Assembly: GCA_965206645.1 (NCBI GenBank)
Contig: CBDBKE010000003.1
Location: 416,001-480,000 of the forward strand
Direction of reading: 5' to 3'
Origin: Terriglobia bacterium
GTDB lineage: Bacteria > Acidobacteriota > Terriglobia > JAJPHL01 > JAPKYU01
DNA length: 64,000 nucleotides
Positions 826-24,595 of the stretch are shown in pieces. The notes beneath the pieces were generated by a model. That model saw nothing but the letters and a program-made list of their open reading frames with translations. It was not told the origin of the DNA and searched no databases. Made by a program: the position numbers and the translations under genes. Each line of letters starts with the position of its first letter. The stretch's first letter is position 1.

Positions 826-1004
826 TTTGGTCGAAGGGGAAGGGCAAATCGAAAATTCCGGATAACTACAGGTGTAACAACTAAGCCCGTCCGTTTGAAA
901 GCTGTGCTCGGTTGCACCCAAAGTGGGTGTATATTTTCAATCGCCGGAAGGCCGAAAAGGAAATTCCGGCTCCAATGCCGACCATCCTCCCCTCGGTAAG
1001 CGAC

Positions 1005-2597
1005 ATGACTCGTGTCCTCGGCTGCAGCATCTTGCTCGCAACAGCCGCTGCCGCGCAGGTATACACGATTGAGACCATCGCGGGAGGCGGAGATGGAGTT
1101 GGCGACGACGGCCCGGCTATCAGAGCCAAGTTGACAGAACCAACCGGTGTGGCGGTAGACGCCGCCGGCAACATCTACATTGCAGATCGGCACAATCACC
1201 GCGTACGCAAGGTCGACAGCTCAGGAACCATCAGCACCTTTGCGGGCACGGGGGTGGGCACGAGGGACTATGGTTTCAACGGGGATGGCGGACCAGCGGA
1301 CCGCGCCTTGTTGGCTTTCCCTGAAGGGGTGGTTGTGGACGCCGTGGGCAACGTCTACATCGCAGATACGGACAACCATCGTATCCGCATGGTCGATGCC
1401 TCGGGCATCATTCATACTATCGCGGGCTCGGGAGAGAGTGGTTTTGACGGGGACGACGGCCCGGCCATCAGTGCCTTGTTGAGCGAACCCAGCGGAGTGG
1501 CGACGGACGGGGCGGGCAACCTCTACATCGCCGATTCGAGGAACCACCGGATCCGCAAGGTCGACGCCTCGGGCATCATTCATACTATCGCGGGCACGGG
1601 GGTGGGAGGCGCCACAAGGGAGGGCGGTTTGGCCGTCGAGTCTGATCTATTTAGGCCTCTCGATGTGGCGGTGGACGGTGCTGGCAATATATACATCGCG
1701 GACTTCACTCGCATCTTCAAGGTCGACATCTCGGGTATAATCCGCACTTTCGGGGGGACGGGACGGGCGGAAACTGGCGCTAACGTCTTCGCCCCTCGCG
1801 GCGTGGCGGTAGACGCCGTCGGCAACGTCTACTTTACTAACCCTTCCTTACCCGGTATCCGCAAGGTTGACGTCTCGGGCGCCATTAGTACAGTCGTCGA
1901 ATTGGTGGAAGAGGATAATCTTCCCCGAGGTCTGGCGGTCGACACCTCCGGAATCGTTTACTTCACGGACATCATAAACTTTCGGGTTTACAAGGTCGAC
2001 GCCTCGGGTGCCCTGACCACCATCGCCGGCCTGGGAGTGGGGGACTATAGCGGGGACGGCGGCCCGGCCACGAAAGTCAAATTGGAATTTCCTAGAAACG
2101 TGGCGGTGGACGGCACGGGGAACGTGTATATCCAAGACTTCTCCCGCATTCGCAAGGTTGATGTTTCGGGCATCATTGACACTATCGCGGGCACGGGAGA
2201 AAGAGGCTTTGGCGGAGACGGCGGTCCGGCCACCAGTGCTTTGTTGACTTTCCCTCAAGGAGTGGCGACGGACGGCGCGGGCAACCTCTACATCGCAGAT
2301 GCGGAGAACCACCGCATTCGTGTGGTCGATAGCACGGGTGTCATTCGCACTATCGCGGGTACGGGAGAGGACGGGTTCGGCGGGGACGGCGGCCCGGCGG
2401 TCCAGGCCCAGCTAAACTACCCCCCTGGCGTGGCGCTGGACGATGCGGGCAACGTCTACATCGCCGATACGCACAACCACCGGATCCGAATCCTGACGCC
2501 TGCCGGTGGTGAGCGAGCGCCACTGTTAGAAGAAATACGCGGTCTTCTTCGACTACGATCTGCGGTCCCGACACGCACGTTAGGAGGGAAAAAGTGA
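1005..2597 (+). CDS. Secreted NHL-repeat beta-propeller protein
   Basis: Signal peptide MTRVLGCSILLATAAAAQ, then ~9 repeats of P-x-GVAVDxxGNxYIADxxNHRIRKVD-x-SG-I-x-TIAG with GDGGPA linkers. Confidence 0.9.
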   Translation: MTRVLGCSILLATAAAAQVYTIETIAGGGDGVGDDGPAIRAKLTEPTGVAVDAAGNIYIADRHNHRVRKVDSSGTISTFAGTGVGTRDYGFNGDGGPADRALLAFPEGVVVDAVGNVYIADTDNHRIRMVDASGIIHTIAGSGESGFDGDDGPAISALLSEPSGVATDGAGNLYIADSRNHRIRKVDASGIIHTIAGTGVGGATREGGLAVESDLFRPLDVAVDGAGNIYIADFTRIFKVDISGIIRTFGGTGRAETGANVFAPRGVAVDAVGNVYFTNPSLPGIRKVDVSGAISTVVELVEEDNLPRGLAVDTSGIVYFTDIINFRVYKVDASGALTTIAGLGVGDYSGDGGPATKVKLEFPRNVAVDGTGNVYIQDFSRIRKVDVSGIIDTIAGTGERGFGGDGGPATSALLTFPQGVATDGAGNLYIADAENHRIRVVDSTGVIRTIAGTGEDGFGGDGGPAVQAQLNYPPGVALDDAGNVYIADTHNHRIRILTPAGGERAPLLEEIRGLLRLRSAVPTRTLGGKK

Positions 2598-2695
2598 TGA
2601 ACTCCGCAAGAGCAAAGCCCTCGGGGACGGTTGTGGTTGAACGCGGTCCGGTCAGCCTGGCCGTAGATTCAAAAAGAAGAGAAGGATGGAGAGGA

Positions 2696-3310
2696 ATGTT
2701 CAAATTCAATCTGTTTGCGGCCATGCTATGTCTGTTAACCCTAAACTTGATGGCGCAAACCGTGCCGCGGCCCGCAGGTCCCTACTTCGAGCCACTCCTG
2801 GATTGGCAATACAGAGCAGGAATATCGAAGCGCGACATCGTGATCGCCCCCGGCGACAGCATCATTCCCCAGATTGCAAACAGTGGGACCCCGCAAAACG
2901 GGGGATTCTTTATGATCTTCCAGGCCAGTAATGTCTCGACGACCATGGCGACGTTCCAAGTGGACTTCTTCGACCCGAACGGGGAATCCATGAACATGCC
3001 ACTCGCAACAAGTCCCGATGACCTGACTGGCACACCTGCCCGTGGATTTCAGGGGGCCCTCTCCCCGGGCGGTTACGGTGCGCAAGTTACGATTCCAGAC
3101 GGCTCTCCCACGGCCATTGGTTATGCCGTGGTGACCATGAATCCGGCCAAATCGGTTGCAGTCAACGCGACGTTCTTGCAGTTAGTTCCAGGGCACCCGC
3201 TGTTTATGGCCGGCGTGCCACTGTCGAACGTCCTTCACAAGACGGCATTCATGCCGTACCTGTCAGGGGCTGGGTTCACTCCCACCCTGGCTTTGGTGTC
3301 GCTGCAGTCT
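2696..3310 (+). pseudogene. 5' part of a secreted protein gene cut by IS3 (segment 1 of 3)
   Basis: RBS GGAGAGG and signal peptide MFKFNLFAAMLCLLTLNLMAQ. The frame ends exactly at the IS3 IRL (3311); it continues on the minus strand at 8125. Confidence 0.85.
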
Positions 3311-3377
3311 TGACCTGACCGGCACTTTTTGTACCAAGTGGAAAGAGAGAGAATCCACTTGAGGAGGAAGTGAGGTC

Positions 3378-3656
3378 ATGCCGACAAGGAGTTACAAGCC
3401 GGAGCAGATTGTAGCGGTGCTACGGCAGATAGAAGTGCAGATGGGGAACGGGAAGACTGCGCCCCAAGCCTGCAAAGAAGCTGGAATCCACACCCAAACC
3501 TACTACCGGTGGCGGAAGGAATACGGCGGGCTGAAGGTGGTGCAGGCAAAACGGCTAAAGGAGTTGGAGAAGGAAAACACGCGGCTGAAGCGGTTGGTAG
3601 CGGAGCTTTCTCTGGAGAAGCAGGTACTGCGGGATGTGGCACAGGGAAACTTCTGA
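3378..3656 (+). CDS. IS3 OrfA (HTH)
   Basis: 92 aa with YYRWRKEYGGL...RLKELEKENTRLKRLVAELSL. Slippery G GGA AAC at 3644-3650 supports -1 frameshifting into OrfB. Confidence 0.93.
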   Translation: MPTRSYKPEQIVAVLRQIEVQMGNGKTAPQACKEAGIHTQTYYRWRKEYGGLKVVQAKRLKELEKENTRLKRLVAELSLEKQVLRDVAQGNF

Positions 3657-4603
3657 GCCCTGAGCGGCGGCGTTGTGCGGTGGAGCGTGCGTGGGAGCAA
3701 CACGGGTTGTCGGAACGGCATGCCTGCCGGCTGCTGGGGCAATGGCGAGGGACACAACGATACGAGCCGATTCATCGGGTGGACGAGGATGCTCTGACCC
3801 GAGCGATCATTGCCCTGGGAGCGAAGTACGGGCGATATGGCTACCGGAGGATCACAGCGTTGCTGCGGAGTGCGGGCTGGGAAGTGGGCAAGGACCGGGT
3901 GCAGCGGATTTGGCGGCGGGAAGGGCTGAAAGTGCCGCAAAAACAAAGGCCGCGAGGACGGCTGTGGCTGAACGACGGTTCCTGTGTACGACTGAGGCCG
4001 GAGCGACCGAACCACGTGTGGAGCTACGACTTCATGAGTGCCAGAACGCACGAGGGGAGAACGCTGCGGCTGCTGACCTTGCTGGATGAGTACACGCGGG
4101 AATGCCTGGCGATCCGGGTGGAGCGGAGGATGGGCAGCCAACAAATCATTGAGGCGTTGTCGGACGTGATGTTGTGGCGAGGGATACCGGAACAGATTCG
4201 ATCCGACAATGGTCCCGAGTTCATCGCCAAACAACTGCGCCAGTGGTTGGCAAATCTAGGGACCGGGACACTGTACATCGAACCGGGCAGTCCCTGGGAG
4301 AACGGGTACTGCGAGAGTTTCAATGGGAAGCTGCGGGACGAATGCCTGAATGGAGAGATCTTTTACTCCTTGAAGGAGGCACAGGTGGTGATTGAACAGT
4401 GGAGGGTGCAATACAACACGGTGCGGCCGCACTCGGCGCTCGGCTATAGGCCCCCGGCGCCGGGGGCCTATAGAGCCTGTGTGGAAACTCGGTTTAGCTG
4501 GCTGGAAATCAAAAGGGATCATGATTCGCTCCAGAATTCTGGTGTTTCGATCTTCGCCGAGTCGCCGGTCCGGGAGTCTGCTGAACTAGCCTTCCTGATT
4601 TAG
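3653..4603 (+). CDS. IS3 OrfB DDE transposase, C-terminal tail replaced by IS1182-derived sequence
   Basis: WSYDF, SDNGPEF, ENGYCESFNGKLRDE and YNTVRPHSALGY motifs. The native tail is displaced to 5871-5920. Confidence 0.9.
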   Translation: MSPERRRCAVERAWEQHGLSERHACRLLGQWRGTQRYEPIHRVDEDALTRAIIALGAKYGRYGYRRITALLRSAGWEVGKDRVQRIWRREGLKVPQKQRPRGRLWLNDGSCVRLRPERPNHVWSYDFMSARTHEGRTLRLLTLLDEYTRECLAIRVERRMGSQQIIEALSDVMLWRGIPEQIRSDNGPEFIAKQLRQWLANLGTGTLYIEPGSPWENGYCESFNGKLRDECLNGEIFYSLKEAQVVIEQWRVQYNTVRPHSALGYRPPAPGAYRACVETRFSWLEIKRDHDSLQNSGVSIFAESPVRESAELAFLI

Positions 4604-5866
4604 CTTCGGTTTGTTGCGCCACAGGCGGGTGAGGTTGAAGGCCGTTGCGGCCAGCGCGAACTCCACCGCGACCTTCTCCAGGCCCCGCCGCCGGAACTGC
4701 CGCATTCCACGCTGTTCTTTCAAAACCCCGATCACTGGTTCCACGATCGCCTTGCGCCGCTGATAAACCGCCCGGCCGGCCGGGTCGCGCAGCTTGCGTC
4801 GCATTCGCCGATGTTCCGGATGCCGTACAGCAGGTGCTCCGGGCGCGCGTTGGCCTCGGTTCAGTTCCCGCGCCAAGTTCGAGTCGGGCACATAGACGTC
4901 CAGGCCACGCTGGGCCAGTTCCACGATGGTCTCCAAGCAAAAGAAGCCGCTGTCGGCGCTGACCTTCTGCGGGCGTTCCCGGCAGCGCCGCTCGACCGCC
5001 TCCACCAGAGGGACCAGCGTCGCGTTGTCGGTGGCGTTTTGCCCCACGTGCTGCTCGACAATCAGATGATCTTCGCTGACCGCCACCTCCGCCGTGTAAC
5101 CCAGCGTGAATCCCTTGCGGTCGCGCAAAAACCGGCTGTCGGGATCGGTTTCCGAACGCCGCTTCAGCCCGCTTTTGCGCAACCGCTCCAGGCATCGCGG
5201 GATTTCTTCCAGCCGCTTCTCCAGCGCTGCCATCTGCTTGCCGCTCAGTTGCTGGCCAGCCGCTTCCTCGCAGGACTGCGTGTCACATTGTTTCTGCCAG
5301 CGACGAATCTGCCGCCGAATTTTGGCTCGCTCTGCCCTCAACTTGGCCACCGTCTCCACCCGGTCCTGCGAGGCGTTGGCCGCCACCCGCGTCGAGTCCA
5401 TGGCCACGTGTCCCAGCCGCCCCATCCCCAGCGACCGCGCCAACTCCACCACCTGTGTGAACAGATCGTTCAGGGCACGGGCGTGCCGCGTCCGAAACTG
5501 GTTCAGCGTCCAAAAGTCCGGCCCCGCTCCGGCCGCCAGATAACGGAACGCCAGGTCCTCCCGCACCCGCTGTTCCAGACGGCGGGCCGAGGTCACGCCC
5601 AGCGCGTAGGCATACAGCCACACCTTCAGCAACAGCGCCGGATGATAGGCCGGGCGGCCTTCTTCCACGTAGCCCTGCTCAAACGCACTCAGTTCCAGCC
5701 GCTCCACGACTTGGTGCACAAAAAAACAGATGTGATCTTCTCCCAGCACCTCCCGCACGCTGGGCGGTAGCAGATACGCTTGCTCCGGGTTGTAGGTCAA
5801 GAATTTCATCGCGCCCCCTTAAGGCGCATTATACGTGACTCGCAAGAGCGGTTTTCACACAGACTC
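4473..5866 (-). mobile_element. IS1182-family element copy A (1394 bp)
   Basis: Terminal IRs GAGCCTGTGTGGAAAC / GTTTTCACACAGACTC and 4-bp TSD TATA (4469-72, 5867-70). Confidence 0.93.
4586..5809 (-). CDS. IS1182-family transposase
   Basis: GRPAYHPALLLKVWLYAY, SARRLE, PDFWT, MDST, TDPDS, ADSGF and YQRRKAIVEPVIG motifs. Confidence 0.92.
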   Translation of the reverse strand: MKFLTYNPEQAYLLPPSVREVLGEDHICFFVHQVVERLELSAFEQGYVEEGRPAYHPALLLKVWLYAYALGVTSARRLEQRVREDLAFRYLAAGAGPDFWTLNQFRTRHARALNDLFTQVVELARSLGMGRLGHVAMDSTRVAANASQDRVETVAKLRAERAKIRRQIRRWQKQCDTQSCEEAAGQQLSGKQMAALEKRLEEIPRCLERLRKSGLKRRSETDPDSRFLRDRKGFTLGYTAEVAVSEDHLIVEQHVGQNATDNATLVPLVEAVERRCRERPQKVSADSGFFCLETIVELAQRGLDVYVPDSNLARELNRGQRAPGAPAVRHPEHRRMRRKLRDPAGRAVYQRRKAIVEPVIGVLKEQRGMRQFRRRGLEKVAVEFALAATAFNLTRLWRNKPKLNQEG

Positions 5867-5958
5867 TATAGCCCTCCCCTGCCACTGAAACCAGTTTCAC
5901 AGCCCCAGGCTGCGATGTAAACTCTCACTACGGTTGGTACAAAAAATCGGTCTGGTCA

Positions 5959-6010
5959 GTCGAATCAAACGTAAGGCTGGCCGTACAGCGATCACCGTCA
6001 TCGTAGTTAA
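5959..6010 (-). pseudogene. Segment 3 of the scrambled secreted-protein gene
   Basis: Reads NYDDGDRCTASLTFDS, in frame with ...TGTLTF from 7670 once IS1380 and one TTAA are removed. Confidence 0.75.
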
Positions 6011-6115
6011 CCCGGATTTCCGTTTTGAAACTCCAAAGCTAACCTTATACTGACCTCCGACGCCAATATTTATGCCGGTTCCAGCGTCAATACAGCTTCC
6101 GGAGGTAGAAACCGA

Positions 6116-7444
6116 GTGGGTGAGAGGCAAAATCAGCCCTTTCAGTTCTCTTTCAATGCTGCATTGAAGGTCGATTTCCAGGGGTCGCGGGTTACTTCCG
6201 ACGGCGGCCTGATCCTCGTGCGCGAATCAGACGAACATTTGGGATTCGGAGAACTCATCAAACAGCACTTGGCCGATCCTCGGAGAAAGAACACACGGTT
6301 GCCCTTTGCTGACCTCCTGCGCCAGTCCGTGTACAGCCGCTTGGCGGGTTACGAAGATATGAATGACGCGGAACGGCTCTCTCAAGATCCGACGTTCCGG
6401 CTGATCGGTTCAGAAAAGATCTGGGAGCGAGGAGCCGCGTTGACTTCCCGGCTGCAATCGTTCGAGACAGAACTACTGACGCAAGATGAGAACCTGGCTG
6501 GTTTGGCAGCGATCAACCGGGATTTAATCGCCAGGGCGGAAGCTATGGATTCCCCGCAACGGGTGGTGCTGGACATGGACTCGACCGAGATTCCGGTCTA
6601 CGGCCAGCAGGAGCAGAGTGCCTACAACGGGCATTTCGAGTCGAGCTGCTATCACCCGTTGTTGCTGTTCAATCGCGAGGGTGACTGTCTGGCGGCCAAG
6701 CTGCGACCGGGCAACGTGCACAGCGCCGAGGACTGGAAAGAACTTCTCCTGCCGGAGATCGAGCGGCAGCAGCAGCTGGGCAAGGAAGTGGTGTTTCGTG
6801 CCGACGCGGCCTTTGCCAAGCCGGAGATTTACGAGGCTCTGGAGGAGCGGGAGGTAAAGTACGCCATCCGCATCCCGGCTAACGACAGCCTACAGCGGGA
6901 CATTGAGGAGTTGCTGACTCGGCCGGTGGGGAGACCCAGCAAGAAGCCGTTGGTGGAGTTCAAGGGCTTTCTATACCAAGCGGCCAGTTGGAAGACAGCC
7001 CGCAGGGTGGTGGCCAAGGTGGAGCATCATCCAGGGGAGCTGTTCCCGCGAGTAGGGTTTATCGTTACGAACTTGACTCTGCCAAGTCGGGCGGTGATGC
7101 GGTTTTACAACAAGCGGGGGACAGCGGAGCAGTGGATCAAAGAAGGAGAGCAAGCAGTGAAGATGACGCGGCTCAGTTGTCACCGGTTCCGGTCGAACGA
7201 GGTCCGGCTGTGGCTCACCATCATTGCCTATAATCTCGGCAACCTGTGGCGGCGACTGGTGCTGCCACAGAGAATCGGGAACTGGTCCCTGACGAGCTTG
7301 CAACAGCGGTTGGTGAAAACGGGAGGACGGCTGGTGAAACATGCGCGATATTACTGGCTTTTGCTGGCCGAAGGGCACTTGAGCCGGAGGCTGTTCAGCA
7401 GCATGCTGCGAACGATCTCGGCACTGCCGCTGCCAGACGGCTAG
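6116..7444 (+). CDS. IS1380-family transposase
   Basis: TSDGGL, LDMDST, YNGHF...YHPL, RADAAF and YNKRGTAEQWIKEG motifs. Confidence 0.93.
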   Translation: MGERQNQPFQFSFNAALKVDFQGSRVTSDGGLILVRESDEHLGFGELIKQHLADPRRKNTRLPFADLLRQSVYSRLAGYEDMNDAERLSQDPTFRLIGSEKIWERGAALTSRLQSFETELLTQDENLAGLAAINRDLIARAEAMDSPQRVVLDMDSTEIPVYGQQEQSAYNGHFESSCYHPLLLFNREGDCLAAKLRPGNVHSAEDWKELLLPEIERQQQLGKEVVFRADAAFAKPEIYEALEEREVKYAIRIPANDSLQRDIEELLTRPVGRPSKKPLVEFKGFLYQAASWKTARRVVAKVEHHPGELFPRVGFIVTNLTLPSRAVMRFYNKRGTAEQWIKEGEQAVKMTRLSCHRFRSNEVRLWLTIIAYNLGNLWRRLVLPQRIGNWSLTSLQQRLVKTGGRLVKHARYYWLLLAEGHLSRRLFSSMLRTISALPLPDG

Positions 7445-7603
7445 CGAACCGGGAGAGAGGGTAATTTTAGGTGCTCAGAAGTGGTCGGGCCGGATAAGTG
7501 TCAGCGGCGCGGCAGGCTGGGCAGGCGAACCCCGCACAGCGACTCCGAAGAACAGCCAAAATGTGCCGCACTACCACCTCAAAGAGGCCAGAGCTGTTTG
7601 CGG

Positions 7604-7632
7604 TTGACACGACAGGGTACGAGGCATAGCTT
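7604..7632 (+). promoter_or_regulatory. Outward-facing promoter near the IS1380 right end
   Basis: TTGACA-17 nt-TAGCTT just inside IRR. Outward promoters are known for the ISEcp1/IS1380 family. Confidence 0.5.
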
Positions 7633-7669
7633 TTCGGGTGAAGAGGAAGCTCGAAATGGAAATTCCGGG

Positions 7670-8125
7670 TTAAACGTTAACGTTCCCGTATTCGAACCTG
7701 TGTTCCGATAGGTATAGCTTCCCGTATAGGTGTCCGCGCCCTCGGTTTCCCTGAAACGCCCAGGACTGACAAAATCCACATAGGCTGTCGGGTAGTTCGT
7801 CGCTCCCCGTTTACCAACGAAGAGATCGTTGAACGCAGCTTCGTCTGCCGGAGCGAACATCTCGCCCGTAACTCGCGCCAAGCTCGTCCAGATCGGCTGG
7901 GTCACAAACGCTCCTTCGTCATGCGCTTTAAAGCCAATCCCTGTTATGGAGCCAGGCAACAGAGGATCTCCGCGAATTTCAAGCGTTCCCTCCGACGTAG
8001 ACGTACAGGAAAGAACGTCCCTTAACAGGAACGCTCGGTGATGCCTGGCACCGAAGTTCATTGTGGCTCTACAGAGTTCGGCCCCGTCAAAGCCGGTGCG
8101 CGCAATCAGTGTCACATCCTGAGAC
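7670..8125 (-). pseudogene. Segment 2 (inverted) of the scrambled secreted-protein gene
   Basis: Begins with the GTCT TSD mate of 3307-3310 and reads SQDVTLIARTGFDG...YRNTGSNTGTLTFN, in frame with segment 1. Confidence 0.85.
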
Positions 8126-9412
8126 TGACCAGACCGATTTTTTGTACCAACCGTAGTGAGAGTTTACATCGCAGCCTGGGGCTGGGGCAAAACGCCACCG
8201 ACAACGCGACGTGAAACTGGTTTCAGTGGCAGGGGAGGGCTATAGGCCCCCGGCGCCGGGGGCCTATAGGCGAGCGCCGAGTGCGGCCGCACCGTGTTGT
8301 ATTGCACCCTCCACTGTTCAATCACCACCTGTGCCTCCTTCAACGAGTAGAAGATCTCTCCATTCAGGCATTCGTCCCGCAGCTTCCCATTGAAACTCTC
8401 GCAGTACCCGTTCTCCCAGGGACTGCCCGGTTCGATGTACAGTGTCCCGGTCCCTAGATTTGCCAACCACTGGCGCAGTTGTTTGGCGATGAACTCGGGA
8501 CCATTGTCGGATCGAATCTGTTCCGGTATCCCTCGCCACAACATCACGTCCGACAACGCCTCAATGATTTGTTGGCTGCCCATCCTCCGCTCCACCCGGA
8601 TCGCCAGGCATTCCCGCGTGTACTCATCCAGCAAGGTCAGCAGCCGCAGCGTTCTCCCCTCGTGCGTTCTGGCACTCATGAAGTCGTAGCTCCACACGTG
8701 GTTCGGTCGCTCCGGCCTCAGTCGGCCTCAGTCGTACACAGGAACCGTCGTTCAGCCACAGCCGTCCTCGCGGCCTTTGTTTTTGCGGCACTTTCAGCCC
8801 TTCCCGCCGCCAAATCCGCTGCACCCGGTCCTTGCCCACTTCCCAGCCCGCACTCCGCAGCAACGCTGTGATCCTCCGGTAGCCATATCGCCCGCACTTC
8901 GCTCCCAGGGCAATGATCGCTCGGGTCAGAGCATCCTCGTCCACCCGATGAATCGGCTCGTATCGTTGTGTCCCTCGCCATTGCCCCAGCAGCCGGCAGG
9001 CATGCCGTTCCGACAACCCGTGTTGCTCCCACGCACGCTCCACCGCACAACGCCGCCGCTCAGGGCTCAGAAGTTTCCCTGTGCCACATCCCGCAGCACC
9101 TGCTTCTCCAGAGAAAGCTCCGCTACCAACCGCTTCAGCCGCGTGTTTTCCTTCCCCAACTCCTTTAGCCGTTTTGCCTGCACCACCTTCAGCCCGCCGT
9201 ATTCCTTCCGCCACCGGTAGTAGGTTTGGGTGTGGATTCCAGCTTCTTTGCAGGCTTGGGGCGCAGTCTTCCCGTTCCCCATCTGCACTTCTATCTGCCG
9301 TAGCACCGCTACAATCTGCTCCGGCTTGTAACTCCTTGTCGGCATGACCTCACTTCCTCCTCAAGTGGATTCTCTCTCTTTCCACTTGGTACAAAAAGTG
9401 CCGGTCAGGTCA
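8126..9412 (-). mobile_element. IS3-family copy 2, not invaded by IS1182; OrfB frameshifted
   Basis: Same IRs as copy 1. Length 1287 = 1250 + a 27-bp insert (8184-8210) + a 10-bp duplication (8713-8732). OrfA is at 9067..9345. Confidence 0.95.
8240..8269. repeat. Perfect 30-bp palindrome in the IS3 3' end (IS1182 target)
   Basis: CTATAGGCCCCCGGCGCCGGGGGCCTATAG. It is 34 bp in the reconstructed empty sites of copies 1 and 3. Confidence 0.95.
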
Positions 9413-14975: not shown

Positions 14976-16212
14976 CTCTTGCCAGCTCAACCGGTCGATG
15001 CAACACAAGCGTTAAATCGTTCTGCCGGAGTTTCAAACTCCAGCGTCTGACGGGGCCGTTCGTTCAGCTGACGTGCCACCTTGTTCAGATGCGCCTGAGA
15101 GTGCACCGACAAGTCCGTTCCCTTGGGGAAGTACTGTCGGAGTAGACCGTTGGTGTTCTCATTCGAACCGCGCTGCCATGGACTCTGAGGATCACAGAAG
15201 TATACGTCAATGTCGGTCGCCAACGTGAACCGTCGATGCTCGGCGAGCTCCAGGCCTCGATCCCAAGTCAGAGATTTGTACAGTTCCGTCGGCAGCTTCT
15301 TCGCGTGCTTGATGAGCGCCGACACGACCGTCTCCGTTTTCTTGCTGGATACTTTCGTAAGCATCACGTAGCGCGTATGACGTTCGACCAGAGTCGCAAT
15401 GTGGCTGTTCTTCGATCCGGACAGCAGATCGCCTTCCCAATGACCGGGCACGGCACGATCTTCGACCGAGGCCGGGCGCTCACGGATCGATACGATGTCG
15501 GTGATCTGTCCTCGTCCATGGCCTCTCAGACTTGCATGTCGGGATCGACGAATCGTCCGCTTTGACCGCAGATGCTGCATCAGCTCTGCCTTCAGCGCAC
15601 CGCGGGCTTGAACAAACAGGCTGCGGTAGATGGTCTCGTGAGACACGTGATAGGACGGATCCTTCGGATAGGCTCGTTTCAGCCAGCTGGCGATCTGCTC
15701 AGGCGACCAGTTTATGCTGAGCTTTCTGGCCACTACCCGTCGTAGTTGTGGATGCTTGACCAGCTGACACCGCTTCGGCCGGCGGGCCCTCTCCCCGGCT
15801 TGCTCATCGGCCTCCGCTGCTCGATAGTCATTATCGCCGCCATTCCGCCGAATCTCCCGGCTCACCGTCGATGGTGAGCGACCCAGCAACCCGGCGATGG
15901 ATCGTATCGATTGATGTGCCGCAATGCCTCGAGAGATCTCTTCGCGCTCCGACAACGTCAGTGCCCAACATGAACGGCGTGGTGGCCGAGGACGGATGCC
16001 TCCGTACGGAGCAAGCTGATGGTAAACAGACGATGGCTGCTTACAAAACACTCGTCCAATCGACTTGAGCGACTCCCCTCGTTTCCACCGATCCCACACC
16101 TCCTCCAGTTCCGCCAGCGTGTAACCGCGACGAGCTCTTTGCTTCATCCGCATACACTCCACCTCCTCCTTTCAAGGCAAAGTGTTGCGTCGATGGGTTG
16201 AGACCACCCTGA
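14976..16212 (-). mobile_element. IS30-family element
   Basis: Imperfect IRs CTCAACCGGTCGATGCAACAC / GTGTTGCGTCGATGGGTTGAG. TTAA lies at equal distance on both sides (14972-75, 16213-16). Confidence 0.85.
14987..16147 (-). CDS. IS30-family transposase
   Basis: LSEREEISRG, WSPEQI, SHETIY, GHWEGD, TWDRG and WQRGSNENTNGLLRQYFPKGTD motifs. Confidence 0.95.
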   Translation of the reverse strand: MKQRARRGYTLAELEEVWDRWKRGESLKSIGRVFCKQPSSVYHQLAPYGGIRPRPPRRSCWALTLSEREEISRGIAAHQSIRSIAGLLGRSPSTVSREIRRNGGDNDYRAAEADEQAGERARRPKRCQLVKHPQLRRVVARKLSINWSPEQIASWLKRAYPKDPSYHVSHETIYRSLFVQARGALKAELMQHLRSKRTIRRSRHASLRGHGRGQITDIVSIRERPASVEDRAVPGHWEGDLLSGSKNSHIATLVERHTRYVMLTKVSSKKTETVVSALIKHAKKLPTELYKSLTWDRGLELAEHRRFTLATDIDVYFCDPQSPWQRGSNENTNGLLRQYFPKGTDLSVHSQAHLNKVARQLNERPRQTLEFETPAERFNACVASTG

Positions 16213-16283: not shown

Positions 16284-16447
16284 TCACGGTAAATGATCAG
16301 CCTGGAAATATTTGGGTCGCAACTGGCACAGATTACAAACCCGAAGAACGAAGCGATCCACGACTGGATGCCTCAACTCTTCCAGCAGGTAGAGCGCCAA
16401 GCTGGGTCGTCAGGGATCGAAGCCACGCGTCGACGGCAGGGTTGCCA
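16284..16447 (-). pseudogene. cas1: Degenerate cas1 C-terminal fragment
   Basis: [32 protein letters not shown] matches the Cas1 motif GxDPxxGFxH...RPSLALDLxEEFRxxxVD, with the His segment deleted. Confidence 0.65.
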
Positions 16448-19400
16448 AAGCCGGGGGCCAACTGGTCTTTCTTTTGTCGAAGGACGGCGGCAATTTGATC
16501 CTTGACGAATAGCTGCTTCAATTCGGCGCTTCTTCCGGCTCTGCTTGCAAAACTTCTTGTCCGCAACATTCTCATGTCTCGCCCTTTCGCCATCCGTGCC
16601 CTTGTTGCCTGGTCTCCAGCCCAGCGTTTCACCCACACATCGGTCTGAGCCTCTTGGATCGCCTTCAGGTGGCCGATCAACTCATCGTACAGCGCTTCGA
16701 GTTCCGCGATCTGCTCGGCAACCTCTTGGCGCACCCGTTCCGGATCGCGTTGGGGCGCCGCTTGAGTCTGAGACGATCTATGCACCGCTGGGCGGCCCAC
16801 GCCCCAGCGATAGTTGAGCCGCACGTAGATGTTAGTGCCGTTGAACCCGAAGGGCGAGAACTGGCCGTAGTAATTGCCGACCGTCCGGATGCCAAACTCG
16901 TTCACGTCGGGGTAAGTATTCAGCAAGTTCTCCCCGCCGATGGCCAGAGCAACGTTTTTCCCGAGCGGGATCCCGAGCTCGACATCGAGCAGCGCCTTGC
17001 CGCCATAGGACGGGTACAGCCACGACTCGGACACGACACCCAAGTCAGCCGCGTTCCGCCCGTCCTCGCTGTCCCAGAACTGACCGAAGTAGTTCAAGCG
17101 GCCCATGAGATTCCATCGGCCGGCGTCGTGATTGACGTTGAAGCTCCACCGCGTGTTCGGCAGCCCCCGTTCCAGCGTAGTGATGCGGAACTGGTCGATC
17201 ACGGAAGATTCGATGTTCTTGACCTCTGTATCCGTGTAGTTGTAGATCGCACTGAACGTCGTGCGCCCCTTCACCAGCGTCGAGATCAGGTCGACGCCCT
17301 GGGTCGTCGTCGAAAAGTCGTTCAAGAAGAACCGGAACACGGGGAAATTCCGTGCTTCTGGAATCCCCTCCGCCAGCAACGTCTCGATCTCGTCATCCGA
17401 CAATTTGATTTCCTGGGCCAGGGCGACGCGGTCGTCGATGTCGACCCGGAAATAGTCCGCGGTGAAGGTGAACGGGCCCTTCTCGAGGACGACGCCCGCG
17501 CTGTAGTTGCGCGATGTCTCCGGTTGGAGCTGGCCTCCGCCCCGCGCCATGGCCACGGCTGAGGTAGCCGGAACCACACCTTGGTTGGTCAGTTGCCCGC
17601 CGATAAAGGCGGTCGTCACGTTGAACGCGTTCTGTTGCCCCGGCGTCGGCGCCCGAAACCCGGTGCTGACGGCGCCGCGCAGCGCGGCCATGCCGGTCAG
17701 CTTGAGGCGCCCGGAGACCTTGTAGTTGACCGTCTTGCCGAAGTCGTCGAAGTTCTCGAACCGGACGGCCGTGCCGAGCGTCCACCGGCCCGGGTCGCTG
17801 AACTCAACGTCGCCATAGACGGCGATGTTGCTACGGCTCCAGGTTCCCGCCGTCGTGTCGGCCCGGTAGCCGTTGAAGCCGTTCGAACCGGAACTGAAGC
17901 CCTGCGCGGCATACGGACCGATCTCCCACGACGGCTGATCGCCGGCGCCAATCGTGAACTCCTCCCTCCTCCACTCCGCGCCGGCGGCCAAGTGCACGAG
18001 ATCGTTGAGGGGGTAGGAAACGTCGAAGTTGAGATTGGTTTCCTTCTGCCGATAGACGCCGGGCCGGAACGACGTCGGCGTGTCGAAACCGAGCGACGCA
18101 TTGACCGTATCGAAAATGAACTGATCGATCTCGCTGGTGCCGATGCTGGCGCTCGCGTCCCAGGTGAAGCCGTTGCTGGCGAACCCGCGCAGACCGCCGA
18201 CCAGCGAGTAGTCGATCAGATCCCCGCCGAACTGCGGAGTGAATCCTCCAGGAAACCGGTTGTGGAGAGTGAAGCAGTTCGGGTCGGCCTCGACTGCGGA
18301 GAGAGCGCCTGCGTCGGGGACGTTGTCGACGATCGGGATGATGGGGCAGCCGCCGGCGCCCGGCTCGCGTCCGGGAGGAGGAACCTTGCTGGTGGGCGCG
18401 GTATCGGCCCAGACCCGGTCGCCGACGAGCAGCGTACGGTTTCCGTCGACCACGGGACCGCGAAAAACCCCGCCCCGCGTGTGTGGATTCCGGAAGTAAA
18501 AGCCCCCGGTCACCTTGCGGGACGCGTAGTTGCCGTGACCGTAGAGTTGATAACGATCGTCGAACAGATGGCCGAAGTTTGCGAACAGCTTGAAGTCGTG
18601 GTTGATTCTCGGCGATCCCCAAACCTGCGCCGTGTCGCGCAGATTCGTATTGCCCGCGTTGATGATGTCCGACGCGTCCTGGCGCTGGATGGCGCGGTTG
18701 GTCGGCTCGGCGGTGCCGTACTCCATGCTGATGTTGCCGAAACCGTTCGCTCCCAGCGGCACCCCGACGTTGCCGGCTACAGAAAACGTCCGGCCGCGTC
18801 CGCCGATTCCGTTACACGAGTGCTTGATGTCACCGATGATGCCCGACCCGCACGTCTCCGGGTTCCCCGAATTGGCATCGAAGAAGCCCCCGGTTTGGAC
18901 TTCCAGGCTGCCTCCCGAGGGATCGTTCTTCAGTTGAAAGTTCATGACTCCGGCGATGGCGTCCGAGCCGTATTGCGCCGCCGCGCCGTCGCGCAGCACC
19001 TCAACCTGCCGAATGGCAATCGATGGAATGATGGAGAGGTCCGGTCCCTGCGAGCCGTCGGCGATGCCATTTCCCAGCCAAGTGATGACCGCCGAGCGGT
19101 GGCGGCGCTTTCCGTTGACTAGGACCAGCGTGTGGTCGGGCGCTAGGTTGCGCAAGTTAGCCGGACGGACGACGGTCCCCGCATCGCTGATCGGCTGAGT
19201 GCTGATGTTGAAGGAGGGGATGACAGTCCGCAACTGGGATACCAAATCCCTGCTACCCTGTCTAGCGAGGTCCTCGGCACGGATGACGTCCACGGGCACG
19301 GTGGACGCGGTCACCGACCGTGGCTCGGCGCGGCTACCGACGACCACGACGGACTGGGCGACGGCGGCCAATTCGAGCGTAAAGTTTCGCAGGACCGATT

Positions 19401-19695
19401 GGCCGGCAATCAGTTCGACGTCATCGGCGATGCCAGTCTCGAAGCCGGGATTCTCAGCCGTAATCGTGTAGACCCCGGGCTCTAGAGTCAATTCGTATGC
19501 GCCGTCGGCATCCGTCGAACCGGTCACCTCGGCTCCGGTGGCGTTGTTGGTCGCCGTTATTTCCGCGCCTGTGATGACTGAGCCGGAATCATCGGTTACC
19601 TCTCCGCGCAAGGTAGCCGTTTGCTGAGCGTACGCGACTCCGGAAACCCCAACCAGGAGCAACATGATTATGACAACAAGACTTCTTTGGAACAT
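16333..19695 (-). CDS. TonB-dependent receptor with N-terminal carboxypeptidase-regulatory-like domain and an anomalous C-terminal extension
   Basis: Signal peptide, [46 protein letters not shown] and [10 protein letters not shown]. The barrel ends at YVRLNYRW (16804). Confidence 0.92.
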
Positions 19696-19840
19696 GGTCA
19701 ACTCCCAAACATAGAGATAATGAACAGCTCACGTATTGCAATACATAAGTATTGTACTCATCCAGTAGGTGTACTCGTCCAGTGGATTAGTGACACTTTG
19801 GCTCCTTGGAAAGGGATTGGTTTTGGGTGAGGAACTCAAG

Positions 19841-20562: not shown

Positions 20563-21724
20563 TGACCTGACCTGCACTTTTTGTACCAAGTGGAAAGAGA
20601 GAGAATCCACTTGAGGAGGAAGTGAGGTCATGCCGACAAGGAGTTACAAGCCGGAGCAGATTGTAGCGGTGCTACGGCAGATAGAAGTGCAGATGGGGAA
20701 CGGGAAGACTGCGCCCCAAGCCTGCAAAGAAGCTGGAATCCACACCCAAACCTACTACCGGTGGCGGAAGGAATACGGCGGGCTGAAGGTGGTGCAGGCA
20801 AAACGGCTAAAGGAGTTGGAGAAGGAAAACACGCGGCTGAAGCGGTTGGTAGCGGAGCTTTCTCTGGAGAAGCAGGTGCTGCGGGATGTGGCACAGGGAA
20901 ACTTCTGAGCCCTGAGCGGCGGCGTTGTGCGGTGGAGCGTGCGTGGGAGCAACACGGGTTGTCGGAACGGCATGCCTGCCGGCTGCTGGGGCAATGGCGA
21001 GGGACACAACGATACGAGCCGATTCATCGGGTGGACGAGGATGCTCTGACCCGAGCGATCATTGCCCTGGGAGCGAACTACGGGCGATATGGCTACCGGA
21101 GGATCACAGCGTTGCTGCGGAGTGCGGGCTGGGAAGTGGGCAAGGACCGGGTGCAGCGGATTTGGCGGCGGGAAGGGCTGAAAGTGCCGCAAAAACAAAG
21201 GCCGCGAGGACGGCTGTGGCTGAACGACGGTTCCTGTGTACGACTGAGGCCGGAGCGACCGAACCACGTGTGGAGCTACGACTTCATGAGTGCCAGAACG
21301 CACGAGGGGAGAACGCTGCGGCTGCTGACCTTGCTGGATGAGTACACGCGGGAATGCCTGGCGATCCGGGTGGAGCGGAGGATGGGCAGCCAACAAATCA
21401 TTGAGGCGTTGTCGGACGTGATGTTGTGGCGAGGGATACCGGAACAGATTCGATCCGACAATGGTCCCGAGTTCATCGCCAAACAACTGCGCCAGTGGTT
21501 GGCAAATCTAGGGACCGGGACACTGTACATCGAACCGGGCAGTCCCTGGGAGAACGGGTACTGCGAGAGTTTCAATGGGAAGCTGCGGGACGAATGCCTG
21601 AATGGAGAGATCTTCTACTCGTTGAAGGAGGCACAGGTGGTGATTGAACAGTGGAGGGTGCAATACAACACGGTGCGGCCGCACTCGGCGCTCGGCTATA
21701 GGCCCCCGGCGCCGGGGGCCTATA

Positions 21725-23118
21725 GAGTCTGTGTGAAAACCGCTCTTGCGAGTCACGTATAATGCGCCTTAAGGGGGCGCGATGAAATTCTTGACCTACA
21801 ACCCGGAGCAAGCGTATCTGCTACCGCCCAGCGTGCGGGAGGTGCTGGGAGAAGATCACATCTGTTTTTTTGTGCACCAAGTCGTGGAGCGGCTGGAACT
21901 GAGTGCGTTTGAGCAGGGCTACGTGGAAGAAGGCCGCCCGGCCTATCATCCGGCGCTGTTGCTGAAGGTGTGGCTGTATGCCTACGCGCTGGGCGTGACC
22001 TCGGCCCGCCGTCTGGAACAGCGGGTGCGGGAGGACCTGGCGTTCCGTTATCTGGCGGCCGGAGCGGGGCCGGACTTTTGGACGCTGAACCAGTTTCGGA
22101 CGCGGCACGCCCGTGCCCTGAACGATCTGTTCACACAGGTGGTGGAGTTGGCGCGGTCGCTGGGGATGGGGCGGCTGGGACACGTGGCCATGGACTCGAC
22201 GCGGGTGGCGGCCAACGCCTCGCAGGACCGGGTGGAGACGGTGGCCAAGTTGAGGGCAGAGCGAGCCAAAATTCGGCGGCAGATTCGTCGCTGGCAGAAA
22301 CAATGTGACACGCAGTCCTGCGAGGAAGCGGCTGGCCAGCAACTGAGCGGCAAGCAGATGGCAGCGCTGGAGAAGCGGCTGGAAGAAATCCCGCGATGCC
22401 TGGAGCGGTTGCGCAAAAGCGGGCTGAAGCGGCGTTCGGAAACCGATCCCGACAGCCGGTTTTTGCGCGACCGCAAGGGATTCACGCTGGGTTACACGGC
22501 GGAGGTGGCGGTCAGCGAAGATCATCTGATTGTCGAGCAGCACGTGGGGCAAAACGCCACCGACAACGCGACGCTGGTCCCTCTGGTGGAGGCGGTCGAG
22601 CGGCGCTGCCGGGAACGCCCGCAGAAGGTCAGCGCCGACAGCGGCTTCTTTTGCTTGGAGACCATCGTGGAACTGGCCCAGCGTGGCCTGGACGTCTATG
22701 TGCCCGACTCGAACTTGGCGCGGGAACTGAACCGAGGCCAACGCGCGCCCGGAGCACCTGCTGTACGGCATCCGGAACATCGGCGAATGCGACGCAAGCT
22801 GCGCGACCCGGCCGGCCGGGCGGTTTATCAGCGGCGCAAGGCGATCGTGGAACCAGTGATCGGGGTTTTGAAAGAACAGCGTGGAATGCGGCAGTTCCGG
22901 CGGCGGGGCCTGGAGAAGGTCGCGGTGGAGTTCGCGCTGGCCGCAACGGCCTTCAACCTCACCCGCCTGTGGCGCAACAAACCGAAGCTAAATCAGGAAG
23001 GCTAGTTCAGCAGACTCCCGGACCGGCGACTCGGCGAAGATCGAAACACCAGAATTCTGGAGCGAATCATGATCCCTTTTGATTTCCAGCCAGCTAAACC
23101 GAGTTTCCACACAGGCTC
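21725..23118 (+). mobile_element. IS1182-family element copy B (1394 bp)
   Basis: Same IRs as copy A and TSD TATA (21721-24, 23119-22). Opposite orientation relative to its host IS3. Confidence 0.93.
21782..23005 (+). CDS. IS1182-family transposase
   Basis: 407 aa, identical to the copy A protein. Confidence 0.92.
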   Translation: MKFLTYNPEQAYLLPPSVREVLGEDHICFFVHQVVERLELSAFEQGYVEEGRPAYHPALLLKVWLYAYALGVTSARRLEQRVREDLAFRYLAAGAGPDFWTLNQFRTRHARALNDLFTQVVELARSLGMGRLGHVAMDSTRVAANASQDRVETVAKLRAERAKIRRQIRRWQKQCDTQSCEEAAGQQLSGKQMAALEKRLEEIPRCLERLRKSGLKRRSETDPDSRFLRDRKGFTLGYTAEVAVSEDHLIVEQHVGQNATDNATLVPLVEAVERRCRERPQKVSADSGFFCLETIVELAQRGLDVYVPDSNLARELNRGQRAPGAPAVRHPEHRRMRRKLRDPAGRAVYQRRKAIVEPVIGVLKEQRGMRQFRRRGLEKVAVEFALAATAFNLTRLWRNKPKLNQEG

Positions 23119-23210
23119 TATAGCCCTCCCCTGCCACTGAAACCAGTTTCACAGCCCCAGGCTGCGATGTGAACTCTCACTACGGTTGGTACAAAAAATC
23201 GGTCTGGTCA

Positions 23211-23408
23211 GGACGACCTCAGAAACCAAAGCACTTGAAGCGCGGCACGATCTTCCCTGTGAAGTGCACACGGGCCGAGTTGCGCCGATTCAAGGCGTTG
23301 GCTTCCTCGGTGCGGGTTCCACTTGCAGAACTGATGCGGGAAGGAGCACGGTTCTACGCTCGGCGGCTAAAGAAGAGAAAAGGCGAGTCGAGAAAGGAGG
23401 AACGATGA
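23211..23408 (+). pseudogene. Small ribbon-helix-helix-like DNA-binding protein, 5' end removed by IS3
   Basis: GRPQKPKHLKRGTIFPVKCTRAELRRFKALASSVRVPLAELMREGA. ATGA overlap with the integrase. Confidence 0.55.
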
Positions 23409-24595
23409 AGACTCGCCGTAGTTTCCAAAATGGCTATGTGACAGATCGTAGGGGTAAGTGGATTATTCGCTGGAGGGAGCGCGTAGTGAAGGACGGGAAG
23501 CTGGCGTGGGCACACCGTCTCGAGACGCTCAGGTCTACCAGTTCGATGACCAAAGGCGAAGCCAGAAAAATCCTGCTAGAACGGCTGGACGAACTCAATC
23601 CGCTTGCCCATTTCCCGGCTCGGGAAACAACGCTGGAGCAACTGGTGAGACGTTGGGAGCAGGAATCGTTGCCCAACAAATCACTGCCCACACAAGCAGG
23701 ATACCGGAAGCTGCTTAAGAAGCACATCCTTGCCGGGGATGGGTTGGCGCTGGTATGTTTGCGGCCACCTGATCTTTCTCCGGGGCTGGTTCAACGTTTT
23801 GTCAGCCGCAAGACTGAAGCGGGGCTTTCGCCACAGACGGTGCGTAACATTTATCACCTGCTGCGCTCGATCTTGCGCTTCGGCATACGTCTCAAGCTAC
23901 TCAGGGAAAACCCATCAAACGGTGTAGAACTGCCTAAGAAGGTGGGGCCTCGTCAAGAGCGGGCTGTGTACACACCGGAGCAAGTCAGCGCCATTTTGAC
24001 GGCGTTCGAGCAACAGGACGATTTACTGTCCCGAACTCTAATTCTGTGCGTCTACTTTACGGGTCTTCGCCGCTCAGAATTATGCGGTTTACGGTGGCAA
24101 GACGCAGACCTCCAAAGGAAGGAGATTCGACCGCAGCGGGCGGTATGGAACGGGCTGGAATGCGACCTGAAGAGCGCAGCCAGCTATTCTGCCTTACCTA
24201 TCCCTGAAATTCTCAGGGATGCCCTCCTCGAACTGCGGCTACGTAGCAGGTTTGCGAATCCCTGTGACCCGGTCTTCGTGGGGCCCGGTGGCAAGCCTAT
24301 GATCCTCGCGAATTGGGTGAGACGAAAGTTGCGTCCTGTTCTTCGACAACTGGCTTTGCCCATGGGTGCTCTTCACAGTTTCCGGCATCCCCGGAGCACT
24401 CGGCTGAATTTCCTTGGCGTTGACCCGCGTACGCTTCAGGCACTAAATCGCCATGCGGATGTGGGGGTGACGTTCAAGCATTACACGCACCTGGTTCCAG
24501 GGGTCCAACGGCAGGCTGTGGATCTCATGGAGGCGGAGTTTCTGGCAGCCCGCGGGAACTCGTGCTCCACTGGTGCTCAAGAGAGGTTGGTTTAG
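23405..24595 (+). CDS. Tyrosine recombinase / phage-type integrase
   Basis: RBS AAGGAGG, arm-binding N-terminus, and TGLRRSEL, LKS, LHSFRH, RHA, KHYTH catalytic motifs. Directly upstream of a tRNA. Confidence 0.92.
   Translation: MKTRRSFQNGYVTDRRGKWIIRWRERVVKDGKLAWAHRLETLRSTSSMTKGEARKILLERLDELNPLAHFPARETTLEQLVRRWEQESLPNKSLPTQAGYRKLLKKHILAGDGLALVCLRPPDLSPGLVQRFVSRKTEAGLSPQTVRNIYHLLRSILRFGIRLKLLRENPSNGVELPKKVGPRQERAVYTPEQVSAILTAFEQQDDLLSRTLILCVYFTGLRRSELCGLRWQDADLQRKEIRPQRAVWNGLECDLKSAASYSALPIPEILRDALLELRLRSRFANPCDPVFVGPGGKPMILANWVRRKLRPVLRQLALPMGALHSFRHPRSTRLNFLGVDPRTLQALNRHADVGVTFKHYTHLVPGVQRQAVDLMEAEFLAARGNSCSTGAQERLV

Follow-up and report, generated by a model that had tools for sequence, protein, structure and literature searches.

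A 27-bp piece of an IS1182-family transposase gene in an IS3-family element of an acidobacterium, probably acquired as filler DNA during break repair

How does an insertion sequence come to carry, close to its end, an exact copy of a short stretch from the middle of another element's transposase gene, and is the copy of any use to it? The question is posed by one IS3-family copy in a 64,000-nucleotide stretch of DNA from a Terriglobia bacterium (referred to below as the window, meaning the whole stretch analysed). This copy, the second of three in the window, has the following parts.

8126..9412, minus strand: IS3-family copy 2, 1287 bp, equal to the 1250-bp reference plus 27 plus 10; defective
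9067-9345: orfA frame of copy 2
8164-8697: orfB remnant of copy 2
8725..8734, minus strand: 10-bp tandem duplication in copy 2, after IS3 reference position 678; frameshifts orfB
8240..8269, no strand: perfect 30-bp palindrome at the 3' end of orfB; its CTATAG at 8240-8245 is the IS1182 site in other copies and is empty here
8212..8225, no strand: small hairpin adjoining the insertion, with a 6-bp stem and a 2-nt loop; common to all IS3 copies
8184..8210, minus strand: 27-bp insertion of copy 2; copies IS1182 from about position 848 to 820, antisense to the transposase in the IS3 orientation

The host is an IS3-family element, with an HTH_Tnp_1 OrfA, an rve DDE OrfB, terminal inverted repeats (TGACC...GGTCA) and a short target duplication. 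PF01527 is found on the orfA frame (E = 3.8e-15) and PF00665 and PF13683 on the orfB frames, and the element scores 237 bits against the NCBIfam IS3 transposase model NF033516, for which the cut-off is 160.

When copy 2 is compared with copies 1 and 3 and with a clean genomic copy, the point of insertion falls after IS3 reference position 1191, which places the 27 extra bases between the hairpin and the final 58 bases of the element. The 27-mer has exactly three sites in the window, at 8184-8210 (+), 5019-5045 (-) and 22546-22572 (+), and none in any of 100 dinucleotide-preserving shuffles. A repeat finder extends the identity by one base on each side, to 29/29, such that 8183-8211 equals 22545-22573 and the reverse complement of 5018-5046. 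Exact search and repeat finder agree with what had first been noticed from the letters alone, and everything that this sequence-only reading had stated about the sequence, the frameshift in orfB included, is correct. The 27 bp keep the reading frame of OrfB and lengthen its C-terminal tail by RRVVGGVLP, beyond the conserved integrase core; an IS3 transcript would carry them antisense to the IS1182 transposase mRNA; and they abut the hairpin, 29-30 bp from a CTATAG that is single and intact. The insert is not flanked by any duplication, and the exact match exceeds it by 2 bp, leaving about 1 bp of homology at each junction, an amount that is also frequent by chance.

The two other IS3 copies in the window are each split by a nested element, absent from copy 2, that contains the matching sequence.

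3311..5958, plus strand: IS3 copy 1; holds IS1182 copy A at 4474-5865, with its transposase gene at 4586-5809 on the minus strand and the 29-mer at 5018-5046
20563..23210, plus strand: IS3 copy 3; holds IS1182 copy B at 21726-23117, with its transposase gene at 21782-23005 on the plus strand and the 29-mer at 22545-22573

The nested element is 1392 bp long and encodes a transposase of 407 residues. This protein scores 321 bits against the NCBIfam IS1182 equivalog NF033551 (cut-off 270) and also contains DUF772 and DDE_Tnp_1 domains (matches to PF05598, PF13751 and PF01609), and the source element belongs to the IS1182 family. Copies A and B occupy the identical CTATAG site in opposite orientations, and it is copy A that has, in the IS3 frame, the orientation of the 27-mer in IS3 copy 2. 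In copy B the 29-mer covers codons 255-264 (V-GQNATDNAT), within the DDE domain (Pfam match 231-393). The source thus lies at 820-848 of the 1392 bp, 545 bp from the nearer end of IS1182. An excision footprint was considered and rejected: the insert lies 29 bp beyond the single intact CTATAG, not at the insertion point, and with a source internal to IS1182 it is no simple excision scar, a point that the sequence-only reading had already made.

The direction of transfer can be judged from the distribution of the 29-mer, which has 17 sites in the genome, 16 of them within IS1182 loci and one in the focal IS3 copy (1/66 IS3). All 16 of the IS1182 loci that cover the region are identical to the focal stretch at 29/29 positions. 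The same region of IS1182 is ungapped, at 83% local identity, in a homologue from a genome of the same genus (G001), and is 78% identical with two gapped positions in one from another family of the same class (G017). The 27-bp piece is therefore native to IS1182 and foreign to IS3, into which it was copied. As the insert differs at no position from the resident IS1182 lineage, the event is recent.

The site next to which the insert lies is one that IS1182 uses habitually. Nearly all full IS1182 copies are flanked by CTATAG, and most sit in a single spot, the CTATAG 3' of the 30-bp palindrome at the 3' end of orfB. The hosts at this palindrome CTATAG are the focal IS3 or diverged relatives of it, entered in both orientations. 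In G001 a homologue with 87% identity to IS1182 is placed likewise between pieces of IS3. IS1182 is here a specialised parasite of the IS3 group.

RpoB similarity places the organism among uncultured Acidobacteriota, its best matches being at 80-83% to Solibacteraceae, Bryobacterales and Acidobacteria MAGs. The genome (4 contigs, 4.41 Mb) has 81 IS3 loci, 66 of which are end-to-end. Of these, 43 deviate from the 1250-bp reference by no more than 1 bp, 7 hold a full or near-full IS1182 and 3 hold some other large insertion; most IS3 copies are thus uninvaded, and the description of copy 2 as the one uninvaded copy is correct for the three copies in the window and not for the genome as a whole. 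All 66 end-to-end copies were aligned to the reference and insertions of 5-400 bp (medium insertions) were counted. There are 13, spread over 12 of the 66 copies, and the focal insert, which had been taken for an isolated case, is one of them.

IS1182 piece, focal copy: 27 bp, IS1182 848 to 820, antisense; at IS3 reference 1191
IS1182 piece, C1:364306-364369: 64 bp, IS1182 462-527, sense; at IS3 reference 1015
IS1182 piece, C4:1604480-1604539: 60 bp, IS1182 1346 to 1285, non-coding 3' part; at IS3 reference 1164, the target itself
IS1182 piece, C4:649188-649259: 72 bp, made up of IS3 1134-1160 and the last 45 bp of IS1182; at IS3 reference 1122
IS1182 piece, C2:446643-447008: 366 bp, complex, including IS1182 147-443 (about 300 bp); at IS3 reference 1139
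IS3-derived insertion: 70-bp copy of IS3 1089-1160; at IS3 reference 1062
IS3-derived insertion: 30-bp duplication with 8 extra bases; at IS3 reference 1157
IS3-derived insertions: two tandem duplications, of 84 bp and 10 bp
Four further insertions: 6-9 bp, source unassigned; one resembles a 6-bp tandem duplication

IS1182 makes up 0.55% of the genome, and given that share the presence of its sequence in 5 of 13 medium insertions has a probability of 6e-9. The IS1182 pieces (27, 45, 60, 64 and about 300 bp) lie at five different IS3 positions, occur in both orientations and are accompanied by no duplicated repeat. In the three simple ones the exact match is slightly longer than the insert, at 29 versus 27, 66 versus 64 and 62 versus 60 bp. 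The target lies at about 1160 in the IS3 reference, and eight of the 13 medium insertions fall in the surrounding interval 1010-1250 (binomial p = 0.001).

Other mobile elements of the same genome served as controls: IS1182 (14 copies), IS1380 (19), a second IS1380 group, IS1380b (19), and a 1291-bp IS (34). These 86 copies contain between none and one medium insertion, as against the 12 of 66 IS3 copies that are affected (Fisher p = 2e-5 to 2e-4). The range reflects an extra 30 bp in one IS1380b copy, which was rejected as a filler insertion, being a divergent end that comprises seven small gaps; p = 2e-4 applies if it is counted. Exact reference length is found in 32/34 copies of ISX, 18/19 of IS1380 and 9/14 of IS1182. 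The pattern of medium insertions is peculiar to the focal IS3 among the five IS families tested.

Two further candidate explanations of these insertions were set aside. That the two indels of the focal copy arose in one mutagenic event is not claimed, as a Poisson expectation based on 15 indels in 66 copies gives about 1.5 copies with more than one indel, and 2-3 are seen. Restriction-like cleavage was rejected after inspection by eye, in which two fragment ends were found to abut GATC and the others not.

We consider it probable that the 27 bp are filler DNA, a stretch of the IS1182 transposase gene that was put into a break in IS3 by error-prone repair and that has no function of its own. 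Breaks may form at or near the palindrome and the target, either by action of the IS1182 transposase or by processing of the palindrome. Ku/LigD end joining might mend such a break and capture a fragment of IS1182 DNA in doing so, or synthesis during repair or replication could switch template onto an IS1182 copy for 27 nucleotides. In either case the filler would come from IS1182 or IS3 itself, the sequences that physically take part. The insert has the hallmarks of filler DNA, namely an exact copy in the same genome, junction homology within the range of 0-4 bp, no target-site duplication and no transposon ends. The genes for end joining are also available. Ku (PF02735, 158.9 bits) is encoded in an open frame at C2:196811-197347, and the LigD polymerase domain, Prim-Pol (PF21686, 289.5 bits), in an open frame at C2:449927-450697.

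The sequence alone is compatible with both end-joining capture and template switching, and we infer the break as well as the pathway; the indirect sign of breaks here is the clustering of eight of the 13 medium insertions around palindrome and target. Template-switch capture, which had been offered from the start as one possible origin, suits an insert that is derived from IS1182, lies off the insertion point, lacks a target duplication and has about 1 bp of homology on each side. Quasipalindrome and short-range template-switch mutations are known in bacteria, and short-range template switching is known also in apes. The present case resembles them in that the event is located beside hairpins and that the host IS3 forms an arm of a large inverted repeat. 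It differs from the classical quasipalindrome switch, in which the sequence directly opposite is copied, in that the donor here lies deep inside IS1182.

The inverted repeat in question is formed by IS3 copies 1 and 2, whose arms are 2.2 kb apart and enclose a segment that has been turned round.

5959..8125, no strand: segment inverted between IS3 copies 1 and 2; an IS1380-family element occupies 6009-7668 within it

One IS3 target duplication has been split in two, its halves being GTCT at 3307-3310 and AGAC at 8122-8125. The site is empty in a genome of the same genus (G003), and likewise in one contig from run X17, with window position 8125 joined straight to the reverse complement of 3310. 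The gene interrupted is an NHL-repeat gene, and its paralogues in the genome are likewise continuous. The split target duplication and the empty site together mean that IS3 inserted here and that 5959-8125 was inverted later. The inversion arose by exchange between the two inverted IS3 copies, and this exchange is a recombination or repair event within the very element that holds the insert. The arm formed by copy 1 holds an IS1182 of matching orientation, and this IS1182, 3.1 kb away in the inverted partner and in the same relative orientation, would be the nearest possible template for the 27 bp.

A different history would have copy 2 descend from an IS3::IS1182 composite, the 27 bp being all that is left of an IS1182 of its own, otherwise lost in a complex way through deletion with rejoining or gene conversion. 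By shared variants (columns 518 and 1133) the nearest IS3 to copy 2 is C3:859475-862093, 518G being common to only these two, and this copy is indeed a composite, with its IS1182 oriented relative to IS3 as the 27-mer is. That IS1182 has also lost material, with 8 small deletions and only 2 mismatches, and elsewhere the 60-bp piece C4:1604480-1604539 lies exactly at the target site, as expected of a remnant. The closest-relative call for copy 2 nevertheless depends on two shared sites in a set of IS3 copies whose variant patterns are mosaic. The order of the parts is also permuted, since in the composite the 29 bp after CTATAG have the 27-mer on their left, and in copy 2 they have it on their right. 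Given this order and the single intact CTATAG, no set of simple deletions yields copy 2. Simple CTATAG-CTATAG excision footprints are found in none of the 66 IS3 copies, and excision of IS1182 followed by end joining is therefore not obviously frequent here. A remnant is on balance an unlikely origin for the 27 bp. Capture at a single break, for its part, leaves unexplained that the closest IS3 relative of copy 2 is an invaded composite.

In a genome with 66 copies of one element, some invaded and some not, an insert of this kind might also be produced by the assembly or by polishing, through mixing of the two sorts of copy. In the Logan contigs of four runs, no listed piece bridges 8183/8184 or 8210/8211, so that the junctions of the insert are not found in these public contigs. 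Compared with the adjacent IS3 bins, depth over 8176-8209 is lower by 50-100-fold in X15 and X16 and by about 20-fold in X1, and what depth is left there may stem from IS1182 contigs, since matches of 28 letters were counted. An exact-pattern search of JGI metagenome contigs returned nothing for the insert with both junctions, and nothing for the uninserted IS3 junction that was the positive control, so that the blank for the insert carries no weight. The runs that share parts of the window are mostly marine, sponge and sediment metagenomes. An artefact would also be in keeping with the restriction of medium insertions to the most repeated, palindrome-bearing family and with the unusual excess of deletions over mismatches in the composite described above. 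However, mis-mapped junction reads would be expected to bring the termini of IS1182 to the target, not to plant an internal 27-mer 29 bp from it; a k-mer graph is not led astray by junction homology of 1 bp; and the assembly is otherwise clean, with copies of reference length dominating across some 150 IS copies. The restriction of the insertions to one family can also be counted against an artefact. An error of assembly or polishing thus seems improbable, more so than a remnant.

There remains the second half of the opening question, whether filler DNA of this kind, once in place, does anything for its host. A functional role would make the insert a record of the parasite, a memory of antisense or spacer-like type with which IS3 silences IS1182 or shields its own target. 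The antisense orientation to the transposase mRNA, should IS3 be transcribed, the nearness of the target site and the recurrence of IS1182-derived pieces across IS3 copies all lend this idea some appeal. An antisense regulator would be expected to keep one orientation and to be retained in live copies. The insert is nevertheless confined to a single, frameshifted copy, and the other IS1182 pieces include a sense one, one from the non-coding 3' part and one that consists of the terminal 45 bp. A spacer-like system would predict an integrase, a duplicated repeat, one length and one place, whereas the pieces run from 27 to about 300 bp, lie at five different positions, vary in orientation and lack repeat duplication. 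It had further been asked whether such inserts recur at this IS3 position and anti-correlate with occupancy by IS1182. Across the 66 copies neither is seen, the five positions being different and pieces being present in 5/56 copies without a full IS1182 and 0/7 with one (Fisher p = 1.0). The insert is absent from 40 related genomes, though one of them, G003, has many IS3 copies. This absence, together with the empty syntenic site in G003, makes the insert recent, which is not proof of its being real.

The resemblance to CRISPR spacer acquisition, which includes ectopic integration by Cas1-Cas2, is limited in the same way. A piece of a mobile element, about 30 bp long, is stored in host DNA beside a palindrome, as a spacer would be, but there is no duplicated repeat, no fixed length, no array and no intact Cas1. 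The search for Cas1 gave only a 41-residue match of 28.5 bits with an internal stop. This match, at about 16293-16415 in the window, overlaps the end of an ORF for a TonB-dependent receptor and is probably spurious. No Rfam family was found above threshold, and the one sub-threshold match, a chance one, lies outside the insert. The local RNA fold has a z-score of -2.9, which is due to the pre-existing 30-bp palindrome present in every copy. An antisense or spacer-like memory is very unlikely. Hardly less far-fetched is a looser version, in which IS3 repeatedly picks up IS1182 pieces beside the landing site of this parasite and some, the antisense 27-mer for example, might be kept because read-through transcripts damp the IS1182 transposase or because the piece spoils the target. 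If that were true, the retained IS1182 pieces would be a primitive transposon-transposon memory that operates without Cas proteins.

Filler DNA, the reading we prefer, has described parallels in eukaryotes, where filler and abortive gap repair accompany maize Ac/Ds and Drosophila P elements and where yeast breaks capture Ty1 cDNA or mitochondrial DNA. The IS3 insertions are like the filler at eukaryotic transposon breaks in consisting of short copies of transposon or nearby sequence, in their permuted order, in their 0-4 bp of homology and in their clustering at the transposon site. They are unlike it in the pathways concerned, which in eukaryotes are SDSA and classical or theta-mediated end joining. 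Full-text literature searches found no bacterial example of IS-in-IS filler, which does not mean that none has been published.

The nearest bacterial case is Sinorhizobium meliloti, for which one report describes the capture of DNA fragments into chromosomal breaks by Ku/LigD end joining, the fragment being a selectable kilobase cassette introduced by electroporation and the break being made by I-SceI (PMC6379672). As in that capture, a foreign fragment is found here whose junctions show hardly any homology or none and whose target is not duplicated, in a genome that encodes Ku and the LigD polymerase domain. Unlike it, the event here is natural and involves 27 bp from a resident IS, and the break and the pathway are presumed.

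The 27-mer adds a natural example to a kind of mutation already known, and taken alone it is a neutral scar in a dead element. More useful than the 27-mer are the set of 13 target-centred, IS3-specific scars and the strict targeting of IS3 by IS1182. An IS1182-family element attacks the palindrome-flanked CTATAG in either orientation, and does so in more than one species of the genus. If confirmed by reads, the pattern would show that an IS that parasitises another IS leaves collateral damage, which inactivates copies of the host IS. It would also be evidence from the field that bacteria use transposon DNA to patch breaks, by end joining or by template switching, capture in bacterial breaks having so far been shown in the laboratory, in S. 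meliloti. In this uncultured, IS-laden acidobacterium, the genome-wide pattern may have recorded error-prone break repair as it happens in nature.

Mobile elements are dense across the whole window. Those that concern us here, besides the IS3 copies themselves, are as follows (window coordinates):

4474-5865, IS1182-family element, copy A, within IS3 copy 1
8154-9313, locus L094, within IS3 copy 2
14987-16162, transposase with HTH_38 and rve domains, IS30-like by domain content
21726-23117, IS1182-family element, copy B, within IS3 copy 3
23186-24595, gene of the phage integrase family, immediately following IS3 copy 3

A 41-residue stretch at 16293-16415, with one internal TGA, matches Cas1 weakly (28.5 bits). 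It overlaps the end of the ORF for a TonB-dependent receptor (16333-19701), and the match is probably spurious; no other match to Cas1 was found in the genome.

Between IS3 copies 1 and 2 lies a 2.2-kb segment (5959-8125) that has been inverted, and the target duplication is split between the two copies, with GTCT at 3307-3310 and AGAC at 8122-8125. The site is empty of IS3 both in the same-genus genome G003 and in a contig of the public sequencing run X17. The split duplication and the empty sites thus show that a single IS3 insertion interrupted a putative NHL-repeat gene (912-3313 plus 7579-8115), and that the rearrangement came later. We take the 561-residue ORF at 912-2597 to be this gene, truncated by the IS3 insertion; the NHL label is our own. 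It contains tandem repeats of ~168 bp (1100-2500; repeat families D1, D2, D5 and D6) and has several paralogues elsewhere in the genome.

The IS1182-family element is also found broken. In the source genome, three independent events (C4:1604480-1604539, C4:649188-649259 and C3:859475-862093) share a break point at element positions 1346-1348, ~46 bp from the right end and adjoining the palindrome ATCATGAT. Elsewhere the element is present as halves, 1-815 and 801-1392, whose common junction word, TTGTCGAGCAG, is only 5 bp away from the sequence that gave rise to the 27-bp insert in IS3 copy 2. Halves at C1:274680-275271 and C1:311244-312058 are separated by 36 kb of other DNA, the inner ends of which are repeated elements and in which aragorn found no tRNA gene; further halves occur at C3:149087-149992 and at several places on contig C2 of G003. 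An exact 31-bp match to element positions 867-897 (85% over 53 bp) at C4:834283-834313, in otherwise unique DNA 78 bp past an IS3 end, may be an old relic or a further captured piece.

The C3:859475-862093 locus is an IS3::IS1182 composite and the nearest relative of IS3 copy 2. Its IS1182 has only two mismatches against eight small deletions (1-10 bp), an unusual indel-to-substitution ratio that points to error-prone synthesis or else to noise in the local assembly.

Genome-wide, the element occupies almost only CTATAG sites adjoining a 30-bp perfect palindrome at the 3' end of IS3 orfB, where it occurs in both orientations and in copies that are 100% identical. An 87% homologue has the same location in another same-genus genome (G001:C2:56982-58647). 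The IS1182-family element is a specialised IS-in-IS parasite.
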